This document shows positions 45,162 to 62,794 of a stretch of DNA of 63,257 nt, piece after piece (position 1 is the stretch's first letter; each line of letters begins with the position of its first letter). The notes beneath the pieces were generated by a model. That model had not been told where the DNA came from and made no database searches. It worked only from the letters and a program-made list of their open reading frames with translations. Origin of the DNA: a virus (Duplodnaviria > Heunggongvirae > Uroviricota > Caudoviricetes); the IMG/VR virus record IMGVR_UViG_3300032167_002310; one strand, written 5' to 3'. The position numbers were made by a program, and so were the translations under genes.

Positions 45162-45190
45162 ATTATATCATATTTTTCATTAAATGTCAA
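45162..45190 (-). promoter_or_regulatory. Consensus extended -10 promoter (TTGACA-N17-TGaTATAAT) upstream of dnaE
   Basis: Minus-strand TTGACA is rc of + 45185-45190; 17-nt spacer; TGATATAAT is rc of + 45162-45170. Confidence 0.75.
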
Positions 45191-45365
45191 CTGGTTGCCC
45201 GTCAGCTTCAAGTCTATCCAAAAGGACTTGTAAGATGTAGGCTGCCGCAGTAAAATCTGTTGTTTGGTCAAGCAAGAATCTGGCAAAAGCTTCACTCTTA
45301 ACAATACGACTTACTTCATCTAAGTTAACTTCAACTTCCATATTCCAATCTATTTTTTCTGCCAT
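45180..45365 (-). CDS. Hypothetical protein (61 aa)
   Basis: Small ORF coupled to the upstream gene. Confidence 0.3.
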   Translation of the reverse strand: MAEKIDWNMEVEVNLDEVSRIVKSEAFARFLLDQTTDFTAAAYILQVLLDRLEADGQPVDI

Positions 45366-45366
45366 A

Positions 45367-45993
45367 TTATTTTACCTCTTTATAATAATACTCATACATT
45401 AACTTCCAAGTAGCAAACAAATGTCTGTACATCGGAGGAATCCACCAAGAGCTGCCACAGAGGACTACTCTATCAATTTTATCAAGATATTTTTCTAATT
45501 TATAAAAATCAAATGGAAGCTCTAATACTTCTTGAGGGTAATACTTTGCGTCAATAATATCAGTGTCAAATTCTGAATTGCCATTAGCAACCCATGTGTA
45601 ACTATTGATGCGATCTCGGTCAGTTAGATATTTTACCCAGTCACCAACGCTTGCAAAATCTAACTCTTCATCCCAGTGTTGACAAATATATCCATATCCA
45701 ATGTCATGATGATAATCTACATTGATTAAATCAAATTTCTCTAAGTCAGCAGTACAATCTACAATTTCCGCATGATTATCAATGAAATAAAAAACATCTT
45801 TATCTAAGCGTTCAAAAAGTTTCATTAAAAACTCTGTTAAATTTTGATATAAACCAAGGTCGGCCGTAGCTCCCCACATATGAGGGAAATGAGTTGCCAT
45901 ATCTTCAAATTTATATTCTTCTCTAATAAAATTGTTATAGGTAGGTAAACTTAAATACATAATTGTATCAAAATCAATAGTTAATACTGTCAT
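45367..45993 (-). CDS. Hypothetical protein (208 aa) with His/Asp-rich putative metal-binding motifs
   Basis: FIDNHAEIVD and INVDYHHDIGYGY, which resembles the deacetylase/arginase-fold DxDxHHGDG motif; weak. Confidence 0.4.
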   Translation of the reverse strand: MTVLTIDFDTIMYLSLPTYNNFIREEYKFEDMATHFPHMWGATADLGLYQNLTEFLMKLFERLDKDVFYFIDNHAEIVDCTADLEKFDLINVDYHHDIGYGYICQHWDEELDFASVGDWVKYLTDRDRINSYTWVANGNSEFDTDIIDAKYYPQEVLELPFDFYKLEKYLDKIDRVVLCGSSWWIPPMYRHLFATWKLMYEYYYKEVK

Positions 45994-47171
45994 CTATAAT
46001 TCCTCACAATCACTAATCTATCTACTGCACGAGTAGCGGCCGTATAGAGCCAGCGCGCATGCATTTCTGCATCACCTTTAAGCCACTCTTCAAGAACTAA
46101 AACTTTACCATATTCAGAACCCTGTGACTTATGGCAAGTAATACAATAGCCATAATCAAATTCTTTAGGCCTCCAAATCTTAGGGAAAGATTTCCAGTTT
46201 TTTTGATTTACTGTTGTTTCACCTTCGTTCAACAACTTATAATCCATATTTACATTTCTGAATATCAAATCTTGAGGTGACAGCATTAGGTCTTCATCCG
46301 TCACTCCCTCTGGTATAAAATCTGCTAACATTTGAGGTTTCAAGAAATAGTGGTTATCATTGAAAGTAACATTACTCAAATATCCGATACTTCCATTAAC
46401 CATTACATCTCCCGCCTCGTTCGGATTCTCCCAGTCGTTGCGCACACAAATTACCTTATCCCCTTCGATAGGACGAGGGTCAGTGACGCCATGAATCATC
46501 TGGCGCATCTGATGATTTACCAGTCTTCTGGTTTCATTCTTCGCTACGATTACTTGGTCAGCCCAAGTAAGCATTCCGTCAACCATATCACACTGGTCAA
46601 TAACCTGCACTTGCTTACCCTTAAAAAGTTCAAGAGGCTTGCCCGCACGAATGTCCATAGTCAACTTAATAATTTCACTATCTTCCTCTTGGCGCATAAT
46701 CTCGTCCAAAAAGATATGAGCATCCTTAAGAACTCCATTATCTTTACCTACTGGTGGCAGCTGGAACGGGTCACCAAGAGCAATAACATGAATATTATGA
46801 GAAAGAAGCAACTGCCAAATTTCATCAGGCAACATAGAAATCTCGTCTACAACAATTAACTTATAAGGATAAATTGGTCTACGAGGTCTGTGTGCGAAGG
46901 TGCCATCATTTCTCGGATAAGATTGATAAAGTAGTCTATGTGCGGTCATGGCATTGGGGCAACCTTTGTCCTTGAGGACAAGGGCTGCTTTGCCAGTAAA
47001 AGCGATATATGCAATATCGGTTTGACGGAGGTTTAGAGCGGATACAATGAACTTAACCAGAGTGGACTTTCCTGTACCGGCGTAACCAGCAATACAGGTA
47101 TATGGAGCGTCTTCATTGTAACGCTTTACAGCAAGCTCCAATCCTTCCTGTTGTTTCTTTGTTAATTCCAT
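45990..47171 (-). CDS. RecD/Dda-like SF1 DNA helicase
   Basis: Walker A GYAGTGKST, Walker B LIVVDEISML, C-terminal YCITCHKSQGSEY...LYTAATRAVDRLVIV (RecD motifs V/VI). Confidence 0.8.
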   Translation of the reverse strand: MELTKKQQEGLELAVKRYNEDAPYTCIAGYAGTGKSTLVKFIVSALNLRQTDIAYIAFTGKAALVLKDKGCPNAMTAHRLLYQSYPRNDGTFAHRPRRPIYPYKLIVVDEISMLPDEIWQLLLSHNIHVIALGDPFQLPPVGKDNGVLKDAHIFLDEIMRQEEDSEIIKLTMDIRAGKPLELFKGKQVQVIDQCDMVDGMLTWADQVIVAKNETRRLVNHQMRQMIHGVTDPRPIEGDKVICVRNDWENPNEAGDVMVNGSIGYLSNVTFNDNHYFLKPQMLADFIPEGVTDEDLMLSPQDLIFRNVNMDYKLLNEGETTVNQKNWKSFPKIWRPKEFDYGYCITCHKSQGSEYGKVLVLEEWLKGDAEMHARWLYTAATRAVDRLVIVRNYR

Positions 47172-47183
47172 TCATATTCTCCT

Positions 47184-47777
47184 TTATTCACAATAACAAT
47201 CGGAATCATCATCGTCATCCCAATCATCATCTTCATATTCATAATCATCATCGTCGCTCGTCCACTCGGCGCTGTTGAATGCGGCAATGGGGTTCGAGAG
47301 ATCGATATCTCGGCAAATCATGGTTTCATATGGGCAACCCCAAACGCAGCCTTCTACATAAAGGGTATCTTCATCCCAATCAAAATAAATAGGACAGAAG
47401 CCACAGCCGAACTTTTTATCATCAATATCAACATATGACTTGGCTTCCATATCATCCAAGTTCACAATAGTGATGCACTGGTAATCACCAGAAGTGATAA
47501 TGTAATCTACCCCATTTTGTTCGACAAAAATTGCTTCAAAAGATGGGTAGTTGCGCACGAACTCAAACATTACAGTACCATTACTGCAAATCTGAATGAG
47601 TGAAGAACCCCATACATGGTCGTCGGTAGCGTGCTTAAAACTCTGTTTAATAACACTATAAGGTTGAGGTAAATCTCTTACTTGATATGAAATATCCTTA
47701 ACCTCATGAATAATATAATTTTCCAGTAAACGCTGCTTATCTAATAGTGCAACTTCTTGATAGTTTTGTCTTTGCAT
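47184..47777 (-). CDS. Cys-rich protein with an extremely acidic C-terminal tail (197 aa)
   Basis: CGFCPIY...CVWGCP cysteine cluster; C-terminus SDDDDYEYEDDDWDDDDDSDCYCE; start codon overlaps the stop of the upstream HD gene. Confidence 0.45.
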   Translation of the reverse strand: MQRQNYQEVALLDKQRLLENYIIHEVKDISYQVRDLPQPYSVIKQSFKHATDDHVWGSSLIQICSNGTVMFEFVRNYPSFEAIFVEQNGVDYIITSGDYQCITIVNLDDMEAKSYVDIDDKKFGCGFCPIYFDWDEDTLYVEGCVWGCPYETMICRDIDLSNPIAAFNSAEWTSDDDDYEYEDDDWDDDDDSDCYCE

Positions 47778-48436
47778 TATTCTTCTTTCCTTTCATAAAT
47801 CTTTAACCACTTTTCATATTCCTCTGAATAGTGAAATTTCAAGATATCATTTAAGGTTCTAATATTAGTGCGCAGAACAAAGAGAGGGTCTGCCATCTCT
47901 GGAAACTCTTCTTTTGCCTTCTTGAGAATGGGAAGAAGCAGCACTTCGGTCTCAGCGCAATTCTTACCAATAGAATCCGCAGAAAGAGCAAAAGGCATAT
48001 CAGACAGATTATTATATCTATCCAATGCCTTACAAATCAAGGCTTCCTTACTTTCCAATAACTCGTTGAAATATCTGCACTTAGTTTCAATCTTAGAGAT
48101 ATCAGTATCCATATGCATGATTGTCATATGTACAACGGCATCTTTGATGGTGTCGTTTACTGGCAAATACTCTGCCTTGATATTGCAATCTTCGAGAATA
48201 TCGTGCAAAAGAATAGTTGCAACAATATTGTCCTCGTTTAAACCGAGCGCAATGGCGTAACAAGCCATAGAAAGCGGATGCACAATATAGGGGGTGCCAT
48301 CTTTACGAGTCTGCGCACTGTGCTGTTTACGAGCGAATTGAAGCGCCTTGATAGACTCGGTCATACCCGCACCTGTGAGATAACCTCTTAAATATGTATA
48401 CATTTTGTCAACATTATAAGGTTGTCTGTTACTCAT
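47777..48436 (-). CDS. HD-domain (p)ppGpp hydrolase (small alarmone hydrolase, RelA/SpoT hydrolase-domain family)
   Basis: RKDGTPYIVHPLSMAC ... ILLHDILEDC matches the SpoT hydrolase signature RKSGEPYI.HP..VA ... ALLHDV.ED; 219 aa stand-alone. Confidence 0.75.
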   Translation of the reverse strand: MSNRQPYNVDKMYTYLRGYLTGAGMTESIKALQFARKQHSAQTRKDGTPYIVHPLSMACYAIALGLNEDNIVATILLHDILEDCNIKAEYLPVNDTIKDAVVHMTIMHMDTDISKIETKCRYFNELLESKEALICKALDRYNNLSDMPFALSADSIGKNCAETEVLLLPILKKAKEEFPEMADPLFVLRTNIRTLNDILKFHYSEEYEKWLKIYERKEE

Positions 48437-48470
48437 ACCAATACCTCCTAACTTTTCTTTCTATACATTT

Positions 48471-48499
48471 ATTATACCATATTTTATATGGAAAGTCAA
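48471..48499 (-). promoter_or_regulatory. Consensus extended -10 promoter (TTGACT-N17-TGgTATAAT) for the alarmone-hydrolase operon
   Basis: rc of + agtcaa 48494-48499, 17-nt spacer, rc of + attatacca 48471-48479. Confidence 0.75.
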
Positions 48500-48602
48500 T
48501 TAGAAGCTTTTTAGAGAAAAATTACCCATGGCATTTTTAATTTGGGTTGACGATTCATGCGTCTGTCACCGGCCGGAGCGTGTTCCACAATTTGCATATA
48601 AA

Positions 48603-48643
48603 CAAAAAAAAATGGCTACATAGTTGTTACACTATGTAGCCAT
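48603..48643 (-). terminator. Rho-independent terminator downstream of the lysozyme-like gene
   Basis: Perfect 13-bp stem atggctacatagt / actatgtagccat with 6-nt loop; a 9-nt A-run on the + strand supplies the T-run for the - strand transcript. Confidence 0.85.
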
Positions 48644-48646
48644 CTG

Positions 48647-49519
48647 TTAATTTACAAAATAGTTATATGCTTTCAAGGCATTAGACTGGCGGATTCCATA
48701 AGAACCACTGCCGCATCTTTCATATGCCTTTGCGAATGCCAATGCAGCATCCTCAGCATCTGTTAAAGCACAGAAACTTTCATAATCCATGCCACTTCTA
48801 AATGCGTATCCGTATGTATCCAACTCTTTCTTAACAGTATCTCTTAAGAAATCGAGTTGGGCTTCAAGGCTTGCGCCCTGGATACCTGGGTAATATCTAC
48901 CAGACCATTGGCAAATACCGTAGTAGCCTCCGCCACTATGACCATATAAGAAAGGCTGTAAGTTGAGAGTCTGTCCGCCAACTTCCGCCATCATGTTACC
49001 CATGACACCGGCGCAAACATAATCATTCCAACCTAATTCGTCTTTCATATATCTCCAAACTTGTGTTGCTACTGGATATTCTCCAGCTTTCTCGCTCCAC
49101 ATAGCTTCAATACGTACTTCTTCAGCTTCGATTGCGGCGATTGTTTCTTCATACTCCGCCATCAAGCCTCGCACATCTGCGAGCTCCTCTTCTACTAAGT
49201 CTCTTTCATCTGCTAACTCTTGGTTGTTTAACAGCTTAATGAGACGGAACTCATAGTCTTTACAAGTTGCCAGTTCAGTCTTTAATACTTCTTTATCAGT
49301 GGAATCTTCATATGTCATTTCTTGAAAATATTTCAACACTTCTGGAACTTTAACTTCTTCTGTCGGGTTTTCAATCATCATCACAGCGGCCGTAGCCGCC
49401 GGGTCTGAACTTGCTGCACTGTCATCTGTTTTATTAAATGCTAACGATGTTGTTGTAATAAGTGCCACAAGTATAATTACTATACCTACTATACGTAAGC
49501 AGTTGAGCTTCTTTTTCAT
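48647..49519 (-). CDS. Membrane-anchored coiled-coil protein with a C-terminal lysozyme-like (phage tail lysozyme-type) domain; putative peptidoglycan hydrolase
   Basis: N-terminal signal-anchor LRIVGIVIILVALITTTSLA; central coiled coil; C-terminal GVMGNMMAEVGG...GYYGICQWSGRYY motif. Confidence 0.45.
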   Translation of the reverse strand: MKKKLNCLRIVGIVIILVALITTTSLAFNKTDDSAASSDPAATAAVMMIENPTEEVKVPEVLKYFQEMTYEDSTDKEVLKTELATCKDYEFRLIKLLNNQELADERDLVEEELADVRGLMAEYEETIAAIEAEEVRIEAMWSEKAGEYPVATQVWRYMKDELGWNDYVCAGVMGNMMAEVGGQTLNLQPFLYGHSGGGYYGICQWSGRYYPGIQGASLEAQLDFLRDTVKKELDTYGYAFRSGMDYESFCALTDAEDAALAFAKAYERCGSGSYGIRQSNALKAYNYFVN

Positions 49520-49536
49520 AATAATGTACTTTCCTT

Positions 49537-49554
49537 CCTAATATTACTATTAGG
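49537..49554 (-). terminator. Short hairpin after the RecJ-like gene (possible weak terminator)
   Basis: cctaata / tattagg 7-bp stem, ttac loop. Confidence 0.35.
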
Positions 49555-49569
49555 TCTGTTGTGCAATTA

Positions 49570-51321
49570 TTAGAAATAATAGGCTGTCCTTCCTACAATT
49601 TCATAGTCTTCAATAATTATCTGCGGTTTGTCGTCCCATCCACTGTTTCTTGAACAGCGGCCAACGACGTTAATGGTAACACAACCTAACTCTGAATACA
49701 AACTTTCATATTCTTCATTAGACGACCTGAACTTAACTAAACTAATACCTTCATCCGAAGGTAAGGCTATCTTCAGAGTTGAACCGAACAAATTGAGGTT
49801 ACTTGCGCTGACTTTTACATCAGTAATAACAACAATTGGCTCTTCCACTCCTTGGCCCCAAATATGCCCCAGGTCAGCAAGTTTCAGAATTTCTGAACCG
49901 TGAACCATATCTGCAAAATAAATCACATCAGGAGAATATTTTGGGGAGAAGTCTACATCTTTTAGTTTTTCATTTGCATATGCGATGAAATCTGCAAAGT
50001 ATTCATCACGAATAGATACACCAAAAGCATTATCATGCCCTTCTGCAAATTCAAAATAACCAGATTCATTTAAGAATTCTTGGAAATTAGTCAAGTCTGT
50101 ACCATTAGCGTTTCGGCCGGAGCCGTCCCATGTAACATAGACATTATCTGGGTCTTCATCGTGGACAGTTCGGTTTAGAATGAGAACAGGGCGTTGGTAC
50201 CTACCCATTATTTGGTTCGCAATCAAACCTGTGATGTTTCGGTTGGACTCATTTTTGCCTTCGAGTTTTACTGCTAAGACTTGATTCTCTAAAAGATTTT
50301 TCTCTTCAATTATGCGTTCAATTATCTCCAAGCTTGCGTCTCTTGCTTTATTCTGTCTGTTTCGAATGTTTGTGCAATTTCTGCAGGCTTGCTCGACTCT
50401 CGTTTCGAACTGACCCTTACAACCACGTTTAGTGGAAGGAATCTGTTCGTAGGCACGAAACTCAAGCATAGACTCAAATAACATTAACTTCTCTTCTACA
50501 GTTCCGACACGAGTAATCGCATTCACACCAGGTGCGATGTAGAAGGAAATTCCATGTGGCGTTACGCGGTCCTTTAGCTGGAATGCTTGCTTTGTGACCA
50601 TGCCACGCAGGAATGGATTTCGAATATTGGCTAAGCCAGTATCCACTAAGTATCTTGTTTCAAAATCTCTCAAATCCATAACGTCAGCAAGGATACCAAG
50701 AGCAACTAAATCTAAATACTGGTCTGCATAATCAACATGAAGCAATGAATCCAAATAAGAACAAAACTTATACACCATACCTACACCAGATAATGACTTG
50801 GTAGGATAGTCGTCCATTTGGTTGTTAATTACGCAAGCGTATTCAGAATAGTGAGTTGTATTGTGGTGGTCAATAACCAACACATCCACCCCTCTTTCGT
50901 GAAGCTCTTTGTGAATTTCAAATTCATTTGAACTTGAGTCAGGAGCAATCACAAGCTTCACATCACTTGGCACTGTCTCCGGAATGATTCCGTGAGCCTT
51001 GTTTGTATGAGGTCTATAAAAGACATTATTCTGCACAAAACCTGGGAAAAGGCAATTCAGATAATTGATAAGAACTGCCGCAGATGTAAAACCATCACAG
51101 TCACTATCAATTTGAACTAAAACTTTATGGTTCTGTGCAATGTGAGAAACCAGCATCTTTGCGCCGGTCTCTATATTGGTAATTGTAGCCGGGTCAATTA
51201 CATCGGCTACCGAGGTATGCAAATAATGATTTACCTCTTCTGCGGGAATCCCGCGGTTGACAAACACCTGTTCGACCACTGACATATGTGGGATGCGAGG
51301 TGCTCTTAGTTGAAAATTCAT
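49570..51321 (-). CDS. RecJ-like DHH-family ssDNA exonuclease/phosphoesterase
   Basis: Motif I VQIDSDCDGFTSAAVL and DHH motif LVIDHHNTTHY; 583 aa. Confidence 0.8.
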   Translation of the reverse strand: MNFQLRAPRIPHMSVVEQVFVNRGIPAEEVNHYLHTSVADVIDPATITNIETGAKMLVSHIAQNHKVLVQIDSDCDGFTSAAVLINYLNCLFPGFVQNNVFYRPHTNKAHGIIPETVPSDVKLVIAPDSSSNEFEIHKELHERGVDVLVIDHHNTTHYSEYACVINNQMDDYPTKSLSGVGMVYKFCSYLDSLLHVDYADQYLDLVALGILADVMDLRDFETRYLVDTGLANIRNPFLRGMVTKQAFQLKDRVTPHGISFYIAPGVNAITRVGTVEEKLMLFESMLEFRAYEQIPSTKRGCKGQFETRVEQACRNCTNIRNRQNKARDASLEIIERIIEEKNLLENQVLAVKLEGKNESNRNITGLIANQIMGRYQRPVLILNRTVHDEDPDNVYVTWDGSGRNANGTDLTNFQEFLNESGYFEFAEGHDNAFGVSIRDEYFADFIAYANEKLKDVDFSPKYSPDVIYFADMVHGSEILKLADLGHIWGQGVEEPIVVITDVKVSASNLNLFGSTLKIALPSDEGISLVKFRSSNEEYESLYSELGCVTINVVGRCSRNSGWDDKPQIIIEDYEIVGRTAYYF

Positions 51322-51400
51322 ATGAAAGTCAACCTCCTTTCATACGAATCACCAAAAATCTATGAATAATGTTCAAATTCAATTAACCACCTTTCGCCTT

Positions 51401-51745
51401 TTAGAATGGAAGTGGTACTTCATCACTAATATGAAGATTACCCTCACCCCAAAGACGAATAGCCGCAAACGGAAAGTCGAACATAGTTGGACTGATTATG
51501 GTTCGATATACATCATATGGAATATTGCGTTGGATGTAAGCTACATTACAACGCACTCCTCTGGAACAATCACTGGCTCTACAAACTCGCCAGAAATCTC
51601 CATTGCCGAACTCTGCAGTAGAACCACTAATTGCAGAGATTTTCTTATGGCGTAATTCAATTCCATATCTTGTATAATTTTCGATTACTTTTTCGAGCAT
51701 TTCATTACCTTCTGCGGCAGTCATGCTCCAAATCGCACCTTTCAT
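51401..51745 (-). CDS. Hypothetical protein (114 aa)
   Basis: ORF overlapping the primase stop by 4 nt (coupled). Confidence 0.4.
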   Translation of the reverse strand: MKGAIWSMTAAEGNEMLEKVIENYTRYGIELRHKKISAISGSTAEFGNGDFWRVCRASDCSRGVRCNVAYIQRNIPYDVYRTIISPTMFDFPFAAIRLWGEGNLHISDEVPLPF

Positions 51746-52806
51746 AGCGTTACTCTCTCCTTAAATAATTTCAAAAACTTTTCAGGTCCTTCGTCTATTG
51801 GGCTTGCTTTATAACTTGTAATCATGTGTCTATCAAATATAAAAGACAAAGTTGCAAAGTTTTTATATTTCGCATGGAGTTTCTTGAAATTGGCTACAAG
51901 ATGCTGATGTTCTTTATCCCCAATCTCTTGGAACTGTCTATCGAATGCTACTATAATTTCCTTTGCGCCAGCGTCAATCAGCATTTGAATCTGATACGCT
52001 GAGATATTACTACCACAACAAGCCACAGAAATGTCATTTTCAATTCCAAAATAAGATTGATACAACAAACAGCTTTTTTCTGATTCAAAGATAATGGCTT
52101 TACCCATTATTTTAATATTTTCTTTGCTGTTGTTCAAGTTGTATAAATTCATTCCTAATGGATGGTTGTAGAGTTCTTTGTTGATACGAATCGGTCTATA
52201 TTTACCGAATCGCTCGCCTTCCTCTGCACATAAGGTACGGCCACGTAACCCGATAAACCTGCCATCTTTATCAAAATGAGGAATTGTGATTTGGTCACCA
52301 CCAGGATAAAAGCCAATATAATTATGTCTAATTGCTTCTTGACTAATTCCCTCGCGCAACCAAGGCGCAATCTTCAAACTGTAATTCAAGCGTGTTAAGA
52401 TAATTGGGTTGAATTCCTTAAGCGTCACATGATAGTCCTTAGTCTCTGTCGCTTGGATTCGGTCATAGTTTGTCAGATGCTTCCAGTCGTCCAACTGGTC
52501 TTCGTCTTGTACCTCGTATTTTGTGGACAATCCGAATCTATATGCGACCCAGCGTACTGCATCATTTAAGTCATATTCTTTATTTCCCTGTATAGCAGCT
52601 ACTTTACTGGTCAATTCGAAAATATCGAACGAGGTGCCGCAACCCGTATAACAAGCAAACAAATCTGTATTTTCATAGTAATATAACTTTCTACTTCCTT
52701 CTCCTGGGAGATTATGACAGATAGTAGAAGAGAGGATACCAAAGTCTGTCCACTCTGGGTCTCCTCCCCATTCTTGAAGTAATTCAAAAATGTTATCTAC
52801 TGTCAA
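51742..52806 (-). CDS. dnaG: DnaG-like DNA primase (zinc-binding and TOPRIM domains); TTG start per ORF track
   Basis: Zinc-ribbon-like LYYYENTDLFACYTGCGTSFDIFEL (DnaG signature FYHCFGCG..G..IDF); TOPRIM-like KAIIFESEKSCLL and VAFDRQ. Confidence 0.65.
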   Translation of the reverse strand: MTVDNIFELLQEWGGDPEWTDFGILSSTICHNLPGEGSRKLYYYENTDLFACYTGCGTSFDIFELTSKVAAIQGNKEYDLNDAVRWVAYRFGLSTKYEVQDEDQLDDWKHLTNYDRIQATETKDYHVTLKEFNPIILTRLNYSLKIAPWLREGISQEAIRHNYIGFYPGGDQITIPHFDKDGRFIGLRGRTLCAEEGERFGKYRPIRINKELYNHPLGMNLYNLNNSKENIKIMGKAIIFESEKSCLLYQSYFGIENDISVACCGSNISAYQIQMLIDAGAKEIIVAFDRQFQEIGDKEHQHLVANFKKLHAKYKNFATLSFIFDRHMITSYKASPIDEGPEKFLKLFKERVTL

Positions 52807-54716: not shown

Positions 54717-55237
54717 TCTTCTACCTCTTCTTCATCTAAAAATGTGAATAGCTTTCGCTTCTTAACTTTGCGTTGAGGCACCGGAATATGGACTTCTCGA
54801 ACTTCGATAATCATTTGTTCTGGTTTGAGAATTTCTTCATTCTTCTGGTTTGCCAACCAAATGTTGTAGTAGTAGTTATAAGCATCATTGTACACATATG
54901 GCACAATACCTATTCCACCCTTAGCTTTTTCGATACTATTCCCTTTAACCTCAAAGAAGTAAACCAATGCTTTTAAGATACCACTATAAGTATAATTATA
55001 TTTATCCTTAAACTCATTGATTTGTTTGCGCACACGCGGATTCACGAACTCTTCATTGAACATCTTCATAATATACTGTTCTAATGCTTCTTTATCCTTT
55101 TCTTCCTTTGCGCGCTTCTCTTCTTCTCTTTCATGACAATGTAAGTGAGCATATCGCCTGGATGACACCTGTGCAGTTGGCATTCTGTCACGGTCAAATC
55201 GTTCATTGCAATATACGCAAGTTACCCAATGCGCCAT
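54713..55237 (-). CDS. Zinc-finger protein (174 aa), first gene of an early transcription unit
   Basis: CVYCNERF ... HLHCH cluster at the N-terminus; stop overlaps the dnaB start. Confidence 0.4.
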   Translation of the reverse strand: MAHWVTCVYCNERFDRDRMPTAQVSSRRYAHLHCHEREEEKRAKEEKDKEALEQYIMKMFNEEFVNPRVRKQINEFKDKYNYTYSGILKALVYFFEVKGNSIEKAKGGIGIVPYVYNDAYNYYYNIWLANQKNEEILKPEQMIIEVREVHIPVPQRKVKKRKLFTFLDEEEVEE

Positions 55238-55273
55238 GGCTATACACTCTCCTTTTCATTACTTTATATATAT

Positions 55274-55302
55274 ATTATACCATATTTTTAATAAAAAATC
55301 AA
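55274..55302 (-). promoter_or_regulatory. Consensus extended -10 promoter (TTGATT-N17-TGgTATAAT)
   Basis: rc of + aatcaa 55297-55302, 17-nt spacer, rc of + attatacca 55274-55282. Confidence 0.75.
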
Positions 55303-55328
55303 CCCGAGGATTCTGTTGCCTCGGGTTG
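55291..55328 (-). terminator. Rho-independent terminator after the AAA ATPase gene, overlapping the -35 of the next promoter
   Basis: 10-bp stem caacccgagg / cctcgggttg (55300-55309 / 55319-55328); the + strand A-run 55292-55298 gives a T-run on the - strand. Confidence 0.75.
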
Positions 55329-55337
55329 ACTGTTATC

Positions 55338-56327
55338 TTATAGACGCTTCAAGTCGAAAATAATCATATCCAACTGAGGAGCCTGGTCTGCGGTACAGTC
55401 GCCAACCTTCTTGCCCCTGCCAAGGTGACTCTCAACAATCTGAGTAATCTTAGCGGCATTAGTAGGACTGCCCTTTTCCATCAAACGACCAACGATTGTC
55501 TGGAATTCATCCATCAAAGCCTTGAAGTCGTATGTAGGCTCATCTACATGCATCTGAGTAGCGGAGTTTGTAACAGCGCCTGCTCCACGCATTTCAGCTT
55601 CCTTGTCAATAGCCTCTGCAATAGCATTTACAAGGTTATCATAAGTGAAATTAATTACGTCAGGAGTATAGCGGAAACGAGAACCAGCTACATATCTTGG
55701 AGTTCCACGGAGGAAGAGCTTAGTCTGAACACCAGCCTCGGTATCAACAGCCTTAGAGAAGCCGATGATATCGCAAGTTCTCTCGCAAACCAGTCTTGCT
55801 CTCTTGTCAAGAGTAGGAACAATCTGATTATATTCCTTACCAGTTTCGTCGGTGAAGACCTTGTCTTCGGAGTGAGAGATAAGTACCAGACCGTAATCCA
55901 TCTGAAGAATCTTTCTGATGCTCTCGTCGAACTCAGTCATCGCCATCTTATAACCCTTACCATAAGGAATTTCAGCGATGTTATCGTAGGAGTTCTTAGC
56001 ATCGGACGCCTGGCCGCAAATGTATTTCTCACAGTAGCCATATGCGATATCCGCAGTGTCGATAACAACAGTCTGGAAGATGTTCTTTACTTCTGGGTCA
56101 TTGAGTTCACGGAGAGTCTTTTTGAAATCACCCCAGCTGTTCATAGGCTTAGCCATGATGCCAGGAATCGCAGAGTAACCCTTTTCGAATGCAAGAACAA
56201 TTGCACCAGGGAACTGAGAAGCGATTGTAGTCTTACCACTCTTAGGTGTTCCGTAGAACAGAACAGAATATCCACGAAGGTTTCTACTTACCTGATGAGG
56301 TTTAATGTCTAATAGTGAATTTCCCAT
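55338..56327 (-). CDS. AAA_24/Sak4-like RecA-fold ATPase
   Basis: Walker A YGTPKSGKTT near the N-terminus; 329 aa; adjacent to an SSB-like gene. Confidence 0.55.
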   Translation of the reverse strand: MGNSLLDIKPHQVSRNLRGYSVLFYGTPKSGKTTIASQFPGAIVLAFEKGYSAIPGIMAKPMNSWGDFKKTLRELNDPEVKNIFQTVVIDTADIAYGYCEKYICGQASDAKNSYDNIAEIPYGKGYKMAMTEFDESIRKILQMDYGLVLISHSEDKVFTDETGKEYNQIVPTLDKRARLVCERTCDIIGFSKAVDTEAGVQTKLFLRGTPRYVAGSRFRYTPDVINFTYDNLVNAIAEAIDKEAEMRGAGAVTNSATQMHVDEPTYDFKALMDEFQTIVGRLMEKGSPTNAAKITQIVESHLGRGKKVGDCTADQAPQLDMIIFDLKRL

Positions 56328-56376
56328 TTTATTTTCTCCTTATATAATATATGAACAATATTCAATTAAAAATCCT

Positions 56377-56400
56377 TGTTAACCCCTCGTGGGGGCTGGG
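56377..56400 (-). terminator. Candidate compound hairpin after the SSB-like gene
   Basis: cccc tcgt gggg core nested in aatcc...ggatt; T-rich sequence follows on the - strand. Confidence 0.3.
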
Positions 56401-56407
56401 GATTCAA

Positions 56408-57346
56408 TTAGAAATCGAATCCACCAGCGGCAGGAGCTGCCTTAGCGGCACCGCCAGCCTTAGATGCCTTATATTCATCGCTACGAGCCTTCATTGCAGC
56501 CAAGTCAGTTTCTCTCTTGGTCATGCACTCCTTAAGCTCAGCAGCTGTAATGGTGCTTTCATCATCCCAGAGGTAAGGCTCTTTCATAGCCCAAGTAATG
56601 ACAAAGTCCTTACGAGTGCTCTTAACCTCACGTACGGAAGCTTCACCGAATGCAGACTCTTCCTCGATAGTACGAACGATAGTCTCGCTTACCTGACGAC
56701 CCTTAACCTTTGTGAACACAGGCTCCTTAGAAGAAGCTTCAAGTCCCTCAAAGTAGTTAATAGCATTAGGATTGAGAACAGAAAGTTCGATAGGCATCAA
56801 ATCATTTCTGAAGTTAAAGATAGCTCCACGAACGATTGCCTTCTCAGGAGTCTGCTTCTCTTCGTCAGCGTCAACATGGCTCACGTTAGTGATAATCATG
56901 TCAACCTCGAAAGTGTTACGAGTCTTTTCATCCTCGTTGATTGCGTTAACTACGTGGATAAAACCACCTTCGTTACGCTTTACGCTAACAAGCTCTTCCT
57001 TACCATTTCTGTCAGAATAGAACTCGTTCAAACCGATTGCAGAATCGATACGAAGCTTAGCAGCCTTGTCAGCGCCATCCTTCATAACAGTACCGAGCTT
57101 ACCATTGATGATATCGCTCAGAGTACCGAAAGATGCATTTGCCTTACCCTTAGAGGTAGTAGCAGTTACATATGTGAAGTGAACAGGCACGATGTTAACA
57201 CCGGCATCGTCAGTTGCGATTTCGATGTTACCAGAGATGAACTCTGTACCAGGGTTCTTAGAATTCTCGCCAGTCACTTTGAGTTCCAAATCATGCTGAT
57301 AAAGTAAACCTTCAATATGAGTTCTGTTAATCATTGCACTTTTCAT
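56408..57346 (-). CDS. Putative ssDNA-binding protein (OB-fold-like N-terminus, C-terminal GGFDF tail)
   Basis: N-terminus INRTHIEGLLYQHDLELKVTGENS...FISGNIEIA resembles an SSB OB-fold start; Ala/Gly-rich linker ending in AAGGFDF (SSB-like acidic/aromatic tip). Confidence 0.4.
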   Translation of the reverse strand: MKSAMINRTHIEGLLYQHDLELKVTGENSKNPGTEFISGNIEIATDDAGVNIVPVHFTYVTATTSKGKANASFGTLSDIINGKLGTVMKDGADKAAKLRIDSAIGLNEFYSDRNGKEELVSVKRNEGGFIHVVNAINEDEKTRNTFEVDMIITNVSHVDADEEKQTPEKAIVRGAIFNFRNDLMPIELSVLNPNAINYFEGLEASSKEPVFTKVKGRQVSETIVRTIEEESAFGEASVREVKSTRKDFVITWAMKEPYLWDDESTITAAELKECMTKRETDLAAMKARSDEYKASKAGGAAKAAPAAGGFDF

Positions 57347-57360
57347 GTTCTTAATTCTCC

Positions 57361-57708
57361 TTAATCAATCTTATAATTTTTTCCTTTTTCAGTTAAAGCG
57401 TAAACAACTGGGTCAGCTCCGACCTTTTCACAGAAGCCATCATTGACCAACTTACGCAGAGAACCGGATACTGCACGAGAACTAATAAACAGTCCTTCGG
57501 CAACATCTCTTGCCTTAACCATAGGCATATCGGACTTCTGCATCCAGTCAAGAATCACCTTGCCGCTGTCAGTGACTTCGGGTTTGTCATTCTTAGTGTC
57601 CATGAGTGCTTCAATGTAAGCCTTTACATTATCAGTCATTTTGTCAGCAACTACGTCTGGCGCAGCTGCCATTAGCGCATTTAGAAAATCAATAAATTCT
57701 TGTTTCAT
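57361..57708 (-). CDS. Small winged-helix DNA-binding protein (115 aa), first gene after an early promoter
   Basis: HTH-like ARDVAEGLFISSRAVSGSLRKLVNDGF; paralogous to the 89-aa ORF at 60168-60437. Confidence 0.4.
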   Translation of the reverse strand: MKQEFIDFLNALMAAAPDVVADKMTDNVKAYIEALMDTKNDKPEVTDSGKVILDWMQKSDMPMVKARDVAEGLFISSRAVSGSLRKLVNDGFCEKVGADPVVYALTEKGKNYKID

Positions 57709-57751
57709 AATAGTATTACCTCTTTTTGTTTTTCATTTACTTTATATAAAT

Positions 57752-57780
57752 ATTATACCATATTTAATTTGAAAAATCAA
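57752..57780 (-). promoter_or_regulatory. Consensus extended -10 promoter (TTGATT-N17-TGgTATAAT)
   Basis: rc of + aatcaa 57775-57780, 17-nt spacer, rc of + attatacca 57752-57760. Confidence 0.75.
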
Positions 57781-58272
57781 TTAGTGTCTTCTATAATGTT
57801 GGTATTGGTAGTTAACTCCATTGTAATCGTAGGTTTCTGAACTTTCATCCTGCTCCCATTCTTCCATCTCGTCGAGATTTGGGAAATAAGTGTCCACATT
57901 ATCGTGGTCTTTCAAGATTTTAGTTACATAAACTTCTTGGCAATATGGAAGTAATTCACGATAAATCATTCCACCGCCAATAATAAACACTGGAATACCA
58001 AGATCCAATTCCAAGAATGCTTTGACTTCTTCCATGCTTGAGTGTTTGATATCTATATCATTATCATCGACTTCTTGCGAAGTAACAATGATATTGAATC
58101 TGTTAGGAAGAGGTTTCTTTGGAAGGGAGTCCCAAGTCTTTCTGCCCATAACTACGGTTGAATCATCAGTTAACTGCTTAAAACGCTTTAAATCATCGGG
58201 AATGCGTTCCAAGAGCTCCCCATTAAAACCGATACCCCAGTTATTATCGACAGCTACAATTGCCGCAATCAT
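57781..58272 (-). CDS. folA: Dihydrofolate reductase
   Basis: MIAAIVAVDNNWGIG ... LPNRFNIIVTS matches DHFR (E. coli MISLIAALAVDRVIG ... LPGRKNIILSS). Confidence 0.9.
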   Translation of the reverse strand: MIAAIVAVDNNWGIGFNGELLERIPDDLKRFKQLTDDSTVVMGRKTWDSLPKKPLPNRFNIIVTSQEVDDNDIDIKHSSMEEVKAFLELDLGIPVFIIGGGMIYRELLPYCQEVYVTKILKDHDNVDTYFPNLDEMEEWEQDESSETYDYNGVNYQYQHYRRH

Positions 58273-58274
58273 GA

Positions 58275-59147
58275 TTAAATACCCAGTTCAAGTTTCAACT
58301 GAGGTTGCATAGGAGCATAATTAACCATGTTGAAATCGTCAATTGTCATGCTATAGAAATCTGTTACCTCAGAGTTGAGTTCCAGATGTGGGGCAGAAGT
58401 CAGTACAAGCTGACCCTCATACTCCTGTCTTTGGAGTTCATAACGACGCAACATTTCATAGGCTGCGTCCATATGACGGTCATAAATCTGTTCATTTGCA
58501 ACCATATGAGAGAAAACTCCAGCCTTATAACCAGTATGGCGCGCAATCATCATAAGCAATGCCGCATACTGAATTTCATTGATACCTCCTGGACCAGAAG
58601 CAGTAAGCATATCACCGCTACGCTGAACCAAAACCATATCAAGATAATCTCCATCTTCTGCATTTCTTACATTCCAAATAGTAAGGAACGCACAAGGAGC
58701 AAGACCAGGAGTCTCATGTAGGTCAGTTTCCTGCCAAAGAGAAACAATTTTGCGGCGACCATATGGGTCATTCTGAATATCCTTGATTAGATTATTAATC
58801 AAATCATAACGACTTACAGTTGCACCATAGCGCTGACCGATTGTGCCGTCGCCAATATCCCATTCATCCCACCAAGTAACGCCCATGTCATGCATCTTTG
58901 CAATGTCATTGGTTGGCTTCTGGTAGATAGTAAAGATTTCTCTAATACCAGTCTTCCAAGCCTGTCTGCGGAGGGTGCAGATTGGGAATTCACCCTTACT
59001 TAAATCGTAAGTTCTAAAAGTATGATTTACTGAGATGGTATGGGCAGGGGTGCCGTCCGCATAATGAGGGCGAGGATTTACATCCTTATAACCTTCACGC
59101 AAAATGCGGTCAATCATCTCATTCATATATCTATCCGCTTTAGTCAT
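58275..59147 (-). CDS. thyA: Thymidylate synthase-family enzyme (ThyA; dUMP hydroxymethylase not excluded)
   Basis: Aligns with E. coli ThyA across YMNEMIDRILREG, FPICTLRR, WDEW, NDPYGRRKIVSLWQ, LAPCAFL (catalytic Cys) and QRSGD; Asn of the uracil-recognition GIN retained; the His after the catalytic Cys is absent. Confidence 0.8.
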   Translation of the reverse strand: MTKADRYMNEMIDRILREGYKDVNPRPHYADGTPAHTISVNHTFRTYDLSKGEFPICTLRRQAWKTGIREIFTIYQKPTNDIAKMHDMGVTWWDEWDIGDGTIGQRYGATVSRYDLINNLIKDIQNDPYGRRKIVSLWQETDLHETPGLAPCAFLTIWNVRNAEDGDYLDMVLVQRSGDMLTASGPGGINEIQYAALLMMIARHTGYKAGVFSHMVANEQIYDRHMDAAYEMLRRYELQRQEYEGQLVLTSAPHLELNSEVTDFYSMTIDDFNMVNYAPMQPQLKLELGI

Positions 59148-59158
59148 TATTTTTCTCC

Positions 59159-60109
59159 TTACTTAATACTATATCCAAATTCTTTGGCTTTGAAATAATC
59201 TTGCCAATAATCTTCTCTTTCATTTAACATTGTTCTGTCACATTCTTCTACAATTTCAAATGTAAAATTCTCGACTCCAATAGCTAACATAGCAGGATAT
59301 AGTTTGTTACGAGTTGGAGTTTCTGCGCCAATGCCTCTCTTGATGTGTTGCTTCCAACGGTCAGCAATGTTGGCAGCTTGGCCGATATAACACATACCAT
59401 TTTCTATATTGGTAATTTTATAAATTCCAGTGTGGACACCTTTACCTACAACTCTACCAATTAAGTCTGTATATGGATTTTCATAATAAACTTTCCAAAT
59501 AACCTTATTTAAAGGTTCGCTATCTCTTAAGTATGGAGTGACCTCACGCAACCTTTCGATTTCTCTCAAATCTTCCTCTGAGAGTACAAGACGGTAGAAG
59601 TTAGCCTTCTCAACCATTTCTTGTGCGCGTTTGTTTGCTTCGACAGCGGCGTTGGTTAATGCACGCATTGTATCCAACTCGCTCTCTACTTCGGATAGTT
59701 CTATTCTCTTGGTTGAGATATTCGAAGTGAAGTATTCCATCAAATCTCGAAGTGTATCGAGATATTCGGCCTCTGCTTCAGCTTCGCTTTGACGAAATTT
59801 CTCACCAATAGCCAAAGCAGATGAAGAGAGTTTTTCCTGCATTTCATTCATTGCAGACTCATATACTGCGGAAGCCGATTGGCGGTTATTTTCCATCATT
59901 TGTTGAAGACTTGCGCTTACCTCGTCTCGACGAGCGGTCATCGCATATGTCTCCGCGTTTAGGTTAGCGAGCTCCTCTCGGAGTTCGTTGTTTTTGTTGA
60001 GTGTAGCTAAATCCAGCTCTTGCGCAACTTTCATTTTCGGACGCAATACGAAATAAACCGAAATTGCGCCGATAGCCAAACCAGCTACAATGCCGAGGAA
60101 TATTAACAT
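59159..60109 (-). CDS. Membrane-anchored coiled-coil protein with C-terminal GIY-YIG nuclease domain
   Basis: N-terminal TM LIFLGIVAGLAIGAISVYFVL; ~170-aa coiled coil; C-terminal GIYKITNIENGMCYIGQAANIADRWKQH ... E ... N (GIY-YIG signature with conserved R, H, E). Confidence 0.65.
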   Translation of the reverse strand: MLIFLGIVAGLAIGAISVYFVLRPKMKVAQELDLATLNKNNELREELANLNAETYAMTARRDEVSASLQQMMENNRQSASAVYESAMNEMQEKLSSSALAIGEKFRQSEAEAEAEYLDTLRDLMEYFTSNISTKRIELSEVESELDTMRALTNAAVEANKRAQEMVEKANFYRLVLSEEDLREIERLREVTPYLRDSEPLNKVIWKVYYENPYTDLIGRVVGKGVHTGIYKITNIENGMCYIGQAANIADRWKQHIKRGIGAETPTRNKLYPAMLAIGVENFTFEIVEECDRTMLNEREDYWQDYFKAKEFGYSIK

Positions 60110-60167
60110 AGAGAGTAAAAAAGCGGGGTAGATGTAGAACCTACCCCGCCGCTTCGCTCTTTATATA

Positions 60168-60437
60168 TTACTCAGCGTCAGTTGCGTCTGGGTCGAAGCT
60201 CATGCCATCAGCAGTGAGGGACAAGAACTTAACAGCCTTGTGAGTGCCATCCTCAAGCTCGATTTCAGCAGGTGTACGAACACCAAGACCCTTTCTCTGG
60301 ATAGCAGAAGTAAAGATGCCATCTACCTGGCGCTTCTCGAGACCGAGAGCCTCTGCTACATCAGCGGCAGTAACCTGAGCGCCGTTGATTTCCTTCAAAT
60401 AATTGAGAACCTTCTTAGAATTTTCCTTCATAGCCAT
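60168..60437 (-). CDS. Small winged-helix DNA-binding protein (89 aa), paralog of the 115-aa ORF
   Basis: VTAADVAEALGLEKRQVDGIFTSAIQRKGL aligns with ARDVAEGLFISSRAVSGSLRKLVNDGF; C-terminal SLTADG vs ALTEKG. Confidence 0.4.
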   Translation of the reverse strand: MAMKENSKKVLNYLKEINGAQVTAADVAEALGLEKRQVDGIFTSAIQRKGLGVRTPAEIELEDGTHKAVKFLSLTADGMSFDPDATDAE

Positions 60438-60505
60438 AATCGTAATCTCCTTTTTAATAATAAAAAATTTAGTGTATTTTCTAAGCCGTTTCAGCTTATA
60501 TAAAC

Positions 60506-60534
60506 ATTATATCAAAAAAATTTTCAAAAGTCAA
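60506..60534 (-). promoter_or_regulatory. Consensus extended -10 promoter (TTGACT-N17-TGaTATAAT)
   Basis: rc of + agtcaa 60529-60534, 17-nt spacer, rc of + attatatca 60506-60514. Confidence 0.7.
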
Positions 60535-60539
60535 GATTT

Positions 60540-60737
60540 TTAAGAATTTTCTTTCTCAAGAATCTCTTGAACGAGGACATCGATTTCCATCATGTCTTCC
60601 AAGCTCATCGCATGACCGGAAAGGGTCATAATTTCATCCTGAGCCCTTGCTACTTCCTTTGGGTCAGAACTGTTTTGAATAATCAATTCGCACTTTGCGA
60701 TTTTCTGAGCCAGGTTTTTGCGTTCTTTTCTCTTCAT
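60540..60737 (-). CDS. Hypothetical protein (65 aa)
   Basis: Small charged helical ORF downstream of ligA. Confidence 0.35.
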   Translation of the reverse strand: MKRKERKNLAQKIAKCELIIQNSSDPKEVARAQDEIMTLSGHAMSLEDMMEIDVLVQEILEKENS

Positions 60738-60784
60738 GAATTTTTCATCCTTAATCTTTACATTTATATTGTATCAAATTTTTT

Positions 60785-62731
60785 TCAATTTGTCAAGAAT
60801 TGTTCAATAAATTCCGCTTCAGTGAGGACTGGGACGCCCAGCTTCTGAGCAGCTACATTCTTGGCAGATGATGAAGTGTTGTCGTTGTTAATGAGATAGT
60901 TAGTGTTCTTGCTTACCGAACCGACAACTTTGCCTCCTCGGCTTTCGATGTCAGCCTGGAGCGCACTTCTATTCTTATACTGGGTTAATTTACCCGTAAT
61001 AACAACTGTAACTCCATCCAAGGAGGTTGAAGTTACCTCTTTTTGCTCGACCTCTTGGACTTTAATGTATTTTTCAACAATTGAGTCCGCAAGTTCATAA
61101 TCAAAGTTTACAATCGCATTGTGCATTTCCAATCCAAAACCATCAATGTTATAGAATTTGAAACCACCGCCAACTGCATCTCTGAAATCCTCCCAAGAAC
61201 TAAAACACTTACTCAGTTCTTTAGAAGCAGAAGAGCCGATAAGAGGAATACCCAAGGCACATATGAAAGAATTCAAGGTACAATTTCTTGATGCATCAAT
61301 TGCATCCAGAATTTTCTCGACAGACTTGACGCCAAAACCAGGTTTCTTAATCCAGTCCGCAGTATAATCTTGCAAACAATACAAGTCAGCTACATTCGAT
61401 ACCCAGCCCCAGTTAATGAGCTTCTCGAGGGTCATCTTTGAAAGCCCCTTGATATCCAAACCTTTCTTTCCGCAGAAATGGTCTAATTTATTAATGAGTT
61501 TCCCCTCACACGAGATATTGGTACAAACAAGGAATGTTGAATCATTGTCTGTACGCTCGGTTACAGGACCGCCGCAAATCGGGCAAACAGTTGGTAATTC
61601 AAACGTCTCCCCGTGAGACTCTTTTTCTGCGAAACCAATTTGAGGGATAATCATATTGGCTTTGTAGACTTCGACTTTTTGACCAACGTGAGCATTTTCA
61701 CCGAGGGTTTCTCTCATAACAGTTACATTATGGAGGCTTGCTCGCTCGACAGTAGAACCATCAATGTCTATGGCTTCAAAGACTGCTATTGGTGTCAAGA
61801 CACCAGTTCTTCCCATGGTCCACTCAATTCTGAGTAACTGAGTTCCAAACATTTCATCATAGAACTTATATGCAAGCGCATTTCTGAAATGGTGGGAAGT
61901 TTCACCTTGTGATAAACCATATTTTACGTCGTCAAACTTAAATACGACTCCGTCTATTGGATAAGAGTATTTAACTGCTAACTGCTTGATATCTTCAGTT
62001 ACATTTTCAAGGATTTCTGCTTTAGAAACCTCTTCCCCAGAAAGGACGATTCGAGGAACAGTCGTAAAACCTAATGCAGACAATGTATTCAAGCGAAGAT
62101 TGAGAGTATCAATCTCGTCCATGCCCTTCAACACATCCCATGCAACGAACTTAAGTCTGCGCTCAGCGCATTCTTTTGAGTCAAGCAGACGAATACTTCC
62201 CGCAGCAAAGTTTCGTGGATTTTTATATTCATTCGCAAAAAACTCAAAATCATCGTAGGTACAAATTACTTCTCCATCCACAACAAGTTCATCCATATAC
62301 TTAATTCGCTTAGGAATAGACGGAATGACTAACGCATTGTGGAAAATACCCTCACCAATAAAACCATTACCACGAGTTTCCGCACTCACTAACTTACCAT
62401 CTACATAACGAAGAGAACAAGTCAAGCCATCCATTTTACACATAGCAACTGTATCTTTGCGATGCATGAACGCTACAACTTCAGATAACTCTTTTGTCTT
62501 CGCCAATGATAGCATCTTATGATTATGTTCCACTTTGTCGAGCTGGTTCACAACCTGATAACTAATCACCTGCGTAGGGGAATCCGGTAAAACGACGCCT
62601 TCACTAATTTCCATAGCCATAAGCTCGAAATACAGGTCATCCCACTCTTCATCAGACATAATAGGAGTGCCCTTGTCGTATTGTAGAGTAGCAAGATTTA
62701 ATTTTTGAACTAACTCTTTCATATCATTCAT
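60785..62731 (-). CDS. ligA: NAD-dependent DNA ligase
   Basis: Adenylation motif CKMDGLTCSLRY (KxDG); zinc finger CPICGGPV...CTNISCEGK; C-terminal BRCT-like region; 648 aa. Confidence 0.9.
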   Translation of the reverse strand: MNDMKELVQKLNLATLQYDKGTPIMSDEEWDDLYFELMAMEISEGVVLPDSPTQVISYQVVNQLDKVEHNHKMLSLAKTKELSEVVAFMHRKDTVAMCKMDGLTCSLRYVDGKLVSAETRGNGFIGEGIFHNALVIPSIPKRIKYMDELVVDGEVICTYDDFEFFANEYKNPRNFAAGSIRLLDSKECAERRLKFVAWDVLKGMDEIDTLNLRLNTLSALGFTTVPRIVLSGEEVSKAEILENVTEDIKQLAVKYSYPIDGVVFKFDDVKYGLSQGETSHHFRNALAYKFYDEMFGTQLLRIEWTMGRTGVLTPIAVFEAIDIDGSTVERASLHNVTVMRETLGENAHVGQKVEVYKANMIIPQIGFAEKESHGETFELPTVCPICGGPVTERTDNDSTFLVCTNISCEGKLINKLDHFCGKKGLDIKGLSKMTLEKLINWGWVSNVADLYCLQDYTADWIKKPGFGVKSVEKILDAIDASRNCTLNSFICALGIPLIGSSASKELSKCFSSWEDFRDAVGGGFKFYNIDGFGLEMHNAIVNFDYELADSIVEKYIKVQEVEQKEVTSTSLDGVTVVITGKLTQYKNRSALQADIESRGGKVVGSVSKNTNYLINNDNTSSSAKNVAAQKLGVPVLTEAEFIEQFLTN

Positions 62732-62765
62732 AATTAAAACCTCTTTATCTTTACTCTATGTATAT

Positions 62766-62794
62766 ATTATATCATTTTTTTATAAAAAAATCAA
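62766..62794 (-). promoter_or_regulatory. Consensus extended -10 promoter (TTGATT-N17-TGaTATAAT) upstream of ligA
   Basis: rc of + aatcaa 62789-62794, 17-nt spacer, rc of + attatatca 62766-62774. Confidence 0.75.

Follow-up and report, generated by a model that had tools for sequence, protein, structure and literature searches.

Predicted near-consensus sigma-A-type promoters repeated in the replication module of an uncultured tailed phage

The locus and its repeated element

The window, that is, the whole 63,257-nucleotide stretch of phage DNA analysed here (IMG/VR record IMGVR_UViG_3300032167_002310, Caudoviricetes), matches a 220,435-bp metagenomic contig with 99.96% identity over a 12.5-kb overlap. 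Its - strand half (34.6-63.3 kb) carries replication and nucleotide-metabolism genes, coding for GyrA (C-terminus only), an NAD-dependent ligase, proteins of 65 and 89 amino acids (aa), a GIY-YIG protein, ThyA, DHFR, a 115-aa protein, a YorF-like protein, an AAA_24/Sak4-like protein, a YorH-like protein of 174 aa, DnaB, a DHH/RecJ-like nuclease, a lysozyme-like protein, an HD_4 protein (RelA/SpoT-type HD), a superfamily 1 (SF1) helicase, DnaE, guanylate kinase (Gmk), the anaerobic NrdD/NrdG, a dUTPase and a RuvC-like resolvase. A tail module occupies the + strand half and continues into the DNA to the left of the window; its tape measure protein has 3085 aa. Along the - strand module we find repeated copies of the element TTGAYW-N14-TGR-TAYAAT (Y, pyrimidine; W, A or T; R, purine). 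By sequence, these copies are genuine and nearly perfect promoters of the housekeeping (sigma-A) type, which divide the replication genes into separate transcription units; large phages of Gram-positive bacteria ordinarily express their non-structural genes in this way.

A first-pass annotation, made from the letters of the window, had described six - strand copies, upstream of dnaE, the HD_4 gene, the 174-aa, 115-aa and 89-aa genes and ligA, and had predicted that the motif would reveal more units. All six were found at the coordinates it gave, each 5' of the gene that it named, and the prediction was borne out by copies at 37287-37315 (-), 60768-60796 (-) and 33720-33748 (+), as well as by a tenth copy just outside the window, 5' of gyrB (L001:4784-4812). 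A total of six was thus too low, since the window holds nine perfect matches, eight on the - strand and one on the + strand. The motif had also been cast as the organiser of the replication module, which is true of the eight copies found there; the ninth, on the + strand, stands 5' of a holin-like gene. The uniform spacing of 17 nt between the hexamers holds for every copy, but the formula first proposed, TTGAYW-N17-TGR-TATAAT, has no match even with one mismatch, because the 17 nt separating the hexamers already contain the TGN; the pattern given above corrects this. An ATA tail 3' of the -10 hexamer, likewise made part of the motif, is present at three of the six sites (45162, 55274 and 62766), whereas the others have AAA, ATT and GTT.

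The nine perfect matches compare with a mean of 0.32, and a largest count of 4, in 100 dinucleotide-preserving shuffles searched with one mismatch allowed. A 43-column weight matrix was built from the ten sites and used to scan 80.7 kb, comprising the window, about 8 kb to its left and 9.5 kb to its right. The ten sites score 33-50 bits (17-45 bits when each is left out of the matrix in turn), while the rest of the scanned DNA scores at most 12 bits everywhere, except for one intragenic strict match of 21 bits; the distribution of scores is bimodal. Nothing in the shuffles scored with the matrix reaches 14 bits.

Promoter architecture, relatives and host

The sigma-A promoter reading of the first-pass annotation agrees with all the computational tests, whether of orientation, position, start site or conservation. 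Among the nine window copies, the -35 hexamer is TTGACA in four, TTGATT in three and TTGACT in two, the hexamers are 17 bp apart in every case, and the -10 hexamer is TATAAT in eight and TACAAT in one. A TG lies 5' of the -10 hexamer in all nine and is part of a full TRTG in five. The end of the -10 hexamer is 26-69 nt from a start codon on the same strand, and a pyrimidine at -1 followed by a purine at +1 is found exactly 7 nt past the -10 hexamer, both in nine of nine copies. In the replication module, all eight copies are co-oriented with the genes. Positions that the search pattern leaves free are also conserved in relatives: of 39 non-redundant sites, 38 have a purine at +1, 31 a T at -17, 33 an A at -2 and 32 a T at -1, and TAAA comes after the +1 purine.

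A TRTG Ex element, an AT-tract adjacent to the -10 hexamer, a discriminator rich in A and T, a start element of the form YRY or YRR and an initial transcribed region rich in A and G are listed as Firmicute features by a survey of promoters in 49 species, in which Bacteroides thetaiotaomicron is an outlier to this core-promoter architecture (PMC12641261). The extra conserved bases of the phage copies match these published features and are therefore part of an ordinary sigma-A promoter rather than a separate signal. The copies share with the Firmicute sigma-A promoters of the TRTG type the -35 hexamer, the 17-bp spacer, the TG at -15/-14, the TATAAT, the AT-rich discriminator, the pyrimidine-purine start and the A/G-rich initial transcript, with no categorical difference. 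They are, however, unusually near the consensus, each having 10-12 of the 12 hexamer positions plus the TG, and their spacing is unusually uniform.

A megablast search of 18 kb against 50,697 phage records gave no nucleotide-level match, and relatives are detected at the protein level only. The nearest sequenced phages are the gut phage Phass-1 (L037, OQ749652), Enterococcus phages of about 140 kb (VRE9_4, EF1 and H1) and the SPbeta group, with a DnaE identity of about 39%. Among relatives gathered through LigA (38-57% identical), 73 of 75 matches to the strict pattern are on the coding strand (a bias of 73:2). Phass-1 and the Enterococcus phages, whose YorF-like proteins are 23-28% identical to that of the window, share the promoter design and its co-orientation with non-structural genes. 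The replication strand of Phass-1 carries four copies that are nearly identical. The paper on this phage nowhere mentions promoters, and none are annotated in the feature tables of Phass-1, VRE9_4, EF1 or H1. Phass-1 belongs to a 'code 15' clade, with TAG recoded and suppressor tRNAs; in contrast, the window has long, intact, multi-kilobase open reading frames (ORFs) under the standard code, and a search of it found no tRNAs. The recoding of Phass-1 is therefore not common to the window phage. In VRE9_4, which is cultured on E. faecium, the relaxed pattern TTGAnn-N14-TGn-TAYAAT has 36 sites in 127 of the 134 kb. The replication block has 12 sites, all co-oriented; the nucleotide-metabolism/tRNA block has 14, of which 13 are co-oriented; and the 51-kb structural/lysis module has no site on its coding strand. 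SPbeta resembles the window in the synteny of its yorE-yorL region, where the YorF and YorH Pfam families, AAA_24, DnaB, DHH/RecJ-like and DnaE follow in the same order; the common order is a small gene, YorF, YorG/Sak4-like, a stem-loop, YorH, YorI/DnaB, YorJ, YorK/RecJ-like and YorL/DnaE, and the SPbeta DnaE is 39% identical to that of the window.

Other observations concern individual relatives. In L016 (6451-7098), a tRNA-Lys/tRNA-Leu pair is preceded by four tandem copies about 120 bp apart, each with an identical AAAAAAGTnC block upstream and without intervening ORFs; these may be stacked promoters, or may give rise to three small RNAs. In L036 (10001-12729) and L026 (10001-12899) the match to ligA spans 2.7-2.9 kb rather than 1.9 kb, which suggests the insertion of an intron, an intein or an endonuclease.

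The first-pass annotation favoured a Firmicute-like host over a member of the Bacteroidetes, and this view gains from the promoter type, the hosts of the relatives, the Shine-Dalgarno cores and the lack of Bacteroidota promoters. The nearest cultured relatives infect Enterococcus and Bacillus, and a Shine-Dalgarno core is found 5' of 41 of 46 genes. For 47 genes, the 150 nt 5' of each were searched for the full Bacteroidota promoter (TTTG near -33 together with TAnnTTTG at -7), which does not occur there; TAnnTTTG by itself is seen six times, against 3.7 expected. Judged from sequence, a Firmicute host and promoters used by the host RNA polymerase are thus well supported. The presence of NrdD/NrdG suggests that the host is anaerobic. 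NrdD homology was also considered as a clue to the phylum of the host and was set aside, because Prevotella and Firmicute genomes both give 62-67% identity. The best NrdD matches (72-77%) are contigs of metagenome-assembled genomes in which the match spans about 0.7-1 kb more than the gene, and nrdD may be interrupted there.

Transcription units and adjoining elements

The copies, with the terminators and hairpins next to them, are collected in Table 1. Together, the copies and the intrinsic terminators would define at least eight - strand units: ligA; the 65-aa gene; the 89-aa gene; the 115-aa, YorF-like and Sak4-like genes; the YorH-like and DnaB genes, on through the RecJ-like to the lysozyme-like gene; the HD and helicase genes; the DnaE and Gmk genes, probably with nrdDG included by read-through; and the 169-aa gene, on to the dUTPase and RuvC-like genes.

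Table 1. Promoter copies and adjoining hairpins or terminators in the window (starts are predicted; P, promoter copy)
Feature	Coordinates	Strand	Remarks
P62766	62766-62794	-	TTGATT-17-TGATATAAT; 5' of ligA; start 62759
Terminator hairpin after gyrA	62797-62820	-	GGAGGAAA...TTTCCTCC; T-run supplied by the P62766 -35 (TTGATT) and T-rich spacer
P60768	60768-60796	-	TTGACA-17-TGATACAAT; additional to the first six; -35 within the final ligA codons; drives 65-aa gene; start 60761 (G)
P60506	60506-60534	-	5' of 89-aa gene; start 60499; leader 62 nt
7-bp hairpin	60482-60498	-	+2 to +18 of the P60506 transcript, then long A-rich leader
Strong intrinsic terminator after 89-aa gene	60122-60150	-	12 pairs, 7 G-C, then TTTTT
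P57752	57752-57780	-	-35 begins directly 3' of the DHFR stop codon; drives 115-aa, YorF-like and AAA_24 (YorG/Sak4-like) genes; start 57745
P55274	55274-55302	-	Drives YorH-like 174-aa gene, DnaB and downstream genes; start 55267
Terminator hairpin after AAA_24	55303-55325	-	CCCGAGG...CCTCGGG; zero gap to the P55274 -35
P48471	48471-48499	-	Drives unit of HD_4 (RelA/SpoT-type HD) gene and SF1 helicase; start 48464
Intrinsic terminator of P55274 unit	48610-48645	-	About 110 nt 5' of P48471
P45162	45162-45190	-	12/12 consensus plus TG; 5' of dnaE (YorL-like); start 45155
P37287	37287-37315	-	12/12 consensus plus TG; additional to the first six; in nrdG 3' end; drives 169-aa gene, via dUTPase and RuvC-like, to 168-aa gene; start 37280
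P33720	33720-33748	+	Sole + strand copy; 12/12 consensus plus TG; drives 114-aa gene and 134-aa holin-like gene with one transmembrane segment (phrog_13712); start 33755
Hairpin after 2023-aa tail gene	33695-33718	+	Ends 1 nt before the P33720 -35
Bidirectional terminator	34545-34582		17 pairs; + and - strand modules converge here

The hairpin at the start of the P60506 transcript is possibly a 5' stabiliser of the mRNA or an operator for the product of the 89-aa gene, which the first-pass annotation had labelled winged helix-turn-helix (wHTH), as it had the product of the 115-aa gene. For both proteins the label corresponds to sub-threshold matches only, and searches against PDB sequences likewise gave only non-significant HTH/wHTH matches. 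In homologous leaders of the 89-aa gene, a 5'-proximal hairpin is kept in most lineages, with stems that differ in sequence (L003:4906, L010:12123, L006:8880, L005:12028, L026 and L014); the leaders of L007 and L034 are without it. No Rfam family reaches its gathering score in the window.

In the 121-nt gap 5' of nrdD (40376-40496, -) there is a TATAAT without a TG or a good -35 hexamer, and 3' of it come a weak hairpin and then a T-run. These may serve the anaerobic reductase genes as a promoter that is weaker or regulated, or as an attenuator. On the + strand, an ORF of 318 aa (56351-57307) overlaps the YorF-like gene (56408-57346, -) almost exactly; no family matches it, and in all likelihood it is a shadow ORF.

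In the tail module, over the window and the 8 kb to its left, there is no intergenic copy, and Pfam and PHROGs searches with the large + strand proteins found nothing beyond tail-related families. Four gaps of this module (13905-14010, 16856-16972, 24673-24785 and 27477-27621, +) each have a G+C-rich, terminator-like hairpin and no sigma-A consensus. Inspection of the + strand gaps by eye brought no alternative recurring motif to light, only the terminator hairpins. The 21-bit strict match mentioned above (TTGACA-N14-TGGTACAAT; L095:7872-7900, + strand) is inside a gene for a 1563-aa tail protein, about 80 nt to the left of window position 1; it is probably due to chance, since it is without the AT-rich spacer and the start block, although an internal promoter is possible. 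Lacking a copy, the tail module on the + strand would have to rely on something other than these promoters. The late genes of SPbeta are transcribed by YonO (PMC5467207), and a late polymerase of that type was considered here. With the SPbeta protein as the query, tblastn gave no hit below E = 0.6, either in the 80.7 kb scanned of the 220-kb contig or in 127 kb of VRE9_4; this makes such a polymerase less likely, with the proviso that YonO diverges fast.

P33720, the 114-aa gene and the holin-like gene lie between two terminators (33695-34582, +), at the junction of the modules, and this two-gene stretch looks, from its layout, like a self-contained, moron-like unit. The lysin genes are elsewhere, on the replication strand (L001:942-4278).

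Interpretation of the promoter set

We consider it very probable (about 0.88) that the copies are promoters for the host housekeeping (sigma-A/sigma-70) holoenzyme in its full Firmicute form. What the analysis shows is the sequence of the copies with its statistics, their orientation and position, their conservation in relatives and their absence from structural modules; from this we infer sigma-A binding, promoter strength, early timing and the exact start sites, the timing from the host-type promoters and the gene content. The host sigma-A holoenzyme would initiate at the copies without phage factors, and as the copies would need only this holoenzyme, transcription of the replication units could begin immediately on entry of the DNA into the cell. 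Units for replication and nucleotide metabolism would accordingly be expressed from the start of infection, the terminators would insulate adjoining units, and the initial transcript, rich in A and G, would lead into the Shine-Dalgarno site. SPO1 and phi29 have early promoters that are served by the host sigma-A and head replication units. Phage SPP1 offers the same arrangement in PE1-PE5, which are early host-sigma-A promoters (PMC6316719). All three phages resemble the window in having several strong host-sigma-A promoters at the head of polycistronic replication units. However, their early promoters have been mapped experimentally, whereas the window copies are predicted; moreover, promoters are more closely packed in the window, with one in roughly every 3 kb of the module, and the phage, with its 220-kb contig, greatly exceeds these three in genome size.

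Conservation that reaches past the canonical hexamers, in the window as in the relatives, could also mean that bases outside the hexamers bind a phage regulator or a sigma-like factor that switches the set together, the A-tract spacer and an ATATRTAAAG start block being bound so as to form a middle class or to allow coordinated shut-off. Two small genes with the sub-threshold wHTH label own one copy each, and the copies of Phass-1 are about 90% identical in the spacer, as such a regulator might lead one to expect. We nevertheless regard this explanation as very unlikely. All of the extra features are already present in the generic Firmicute sigma-A promoter (PMC12641261), the spacer identity within a genome (0.454) is scarcely above that between genomes (0.416), the identity of the block after the -10 hexamer does not differ significantly (0.533 within versus 0.51 between genomes, p about 0.12), and no sigma-factor domain was found among the window proteins scanned. 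Because spacer identity barely exceeds the between-genome value, a copy-and-paste origin is rejected for the window, although it is possible for Phass-1. Each copy appears to embody the consensus independently, and not to stem from a recent duplication, Phass-1 excepted. Nor would we credit chance matches of an AT-rich pattern in AT-rich intergenic DNA. The genome has a G+C content of 35-41% and generic sigma-70-like matches are indeed common (76-80, against 51-62 in shuffles), but no shuffle reaches the nine perfect copies, and these are completely co-oriented with the genes and conserved in divergent relatives, so that chance is hardly tenable and may be called already refuted.

The hairpins bring to mind another class of element. 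In T4-type phages, promoter early stem-loop elements (PeSLs) combine repeated host-consensus promoters with a stem-loop that ends upstream transcription, have an intergenic position and carry a Shine-Dalgarno site at their end (PMC2839356, PMC4122927). If the copies were mobile cassettes of this kind, they would provide short homologies for recombination that shuffles genes. A composite promoter/stem-loop form is found at three of the nine window copies, where a terminator-like hairpin abuts the -35 hexamer. Across the family, this is the case at 7 of 53 non-redundant sites but at only 58 of 3000 random positions (1.9%, p = 7e-5). Six of the seven fused sites use the TTGATT-plus-T-run variant (Fisher p = 0.006), and the terminator U-tract serves also as the -35 hexamer and the proximal spacer, which explains the C/T and A/T alternatives in the -35 hexamer. 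This form differs from a PeSL, however, in that the hairpin is immediately 5' of the -35 hexamer and its T-run doubles as TTGATT and spacer, and in that most copies (46 of 53 in the family) are free of a hairpin, whereas in PeSL-type cassettes a stem-loop would be expected in every unit. The genes next to the copies belong to the conserved replication core and are not orphans. Where near-identical relatives are compared, an indel begins about 40 nt past a copy, but it is the only one of four, a small sample, to adjoin one, its insert is a free-standing gene of homing-endonuclease type, and there is no second flanking copy. PeSL-style recombination is thus unsupported, and since the likeness of copies within a genome is no greater than selection for a shared consensus would explain, we find the cassette explanation highly improbable. 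With respect to the indels, L013 has two extra free-standing homing-endonuclease-like genes (14224-14937 and 17366-18152; one of 201 aa and GIY-YIG-like, the other of 256 aa) in comparison with L010, to which it is 97% identical; one of them is inserted precisely in the interval from a promoter copy to the YorH-like gene, whose first codons it replaces.

Several points weigh against host sigma-A promoters forming a single early set that accounts for the whole module. The - strand module has 16 intergenic gaps of 20 nt or more, and just half of them, 8, have a copy. The GIY-YIG/thyA/DHFR unit begins 12 nt past the strong terminator at 60122-60150 (region 60110-60167) and has no copy, and therefore the copies are not the whole transcription map. 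This unit, which has a poor ribosome-binding site, would need read-through for its expression; such expression is known for some homing-endonuclease genes. P33720, a perfect copy, drives a holin-like gene, which is not expected to be early, and this argues against one uniform early class. A full-consensus promoter need not be the strongest in vivo, as promoter escape can limit its output. The scanned DNA amounts to about 81 kb of the 220-kb contig, and a search of the literature on the phage and its relatives found no transcript or binding data. Lastly, SPbeta has no copy in 44 kb, and not even TTGAnn-16-18-TAYAAT on the coding strand. As SPbeta is syntenic but without the motif, the array is not inherent to the gene module; the comparison indicates that it is a trait of this phage branch and not of the replication module itself.

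The promoter reading may be carried further, to a 'stop-and-restart' insulator in which the U-tract of a terminator is the -35 hexamer (TTGATT) and spacer of the next promoter, every non-structural unit uses the same core promoter and is isolated from the unit upstream, leader elements such as the 5' hairpin of the 89-aa gene's transcript tune expression and a phage factor might bind the common start block and shut the set off at the late switch; taken as a whole, we think this scheme unlikely.

In any event, the kind of element is well known, while the phage lineage that carries the copies is undescribed. Our current understanding of phage transcription is unchanged, and the value of the copies lies in annotation and in the inference of a host. 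For an uncultured gut/rumen phage lineage related to Phass-1, the Enterococcus phages and SPbeta, in which promoters have been undescribed, they provide a usable map of the transcription units in the replication module, and they lend sequence-level support to a Firmicute host. Since they are short and close to the Gram-positive promoter consensus, and in some cases have a terminator built in upstream, they are also possible parts for expression in anaerobic Firmicutes. For the family as a whole, TTGAnn-N14-TGn-TAYAAT, when co-oriented with the genes, tells non-structural from structural modules.

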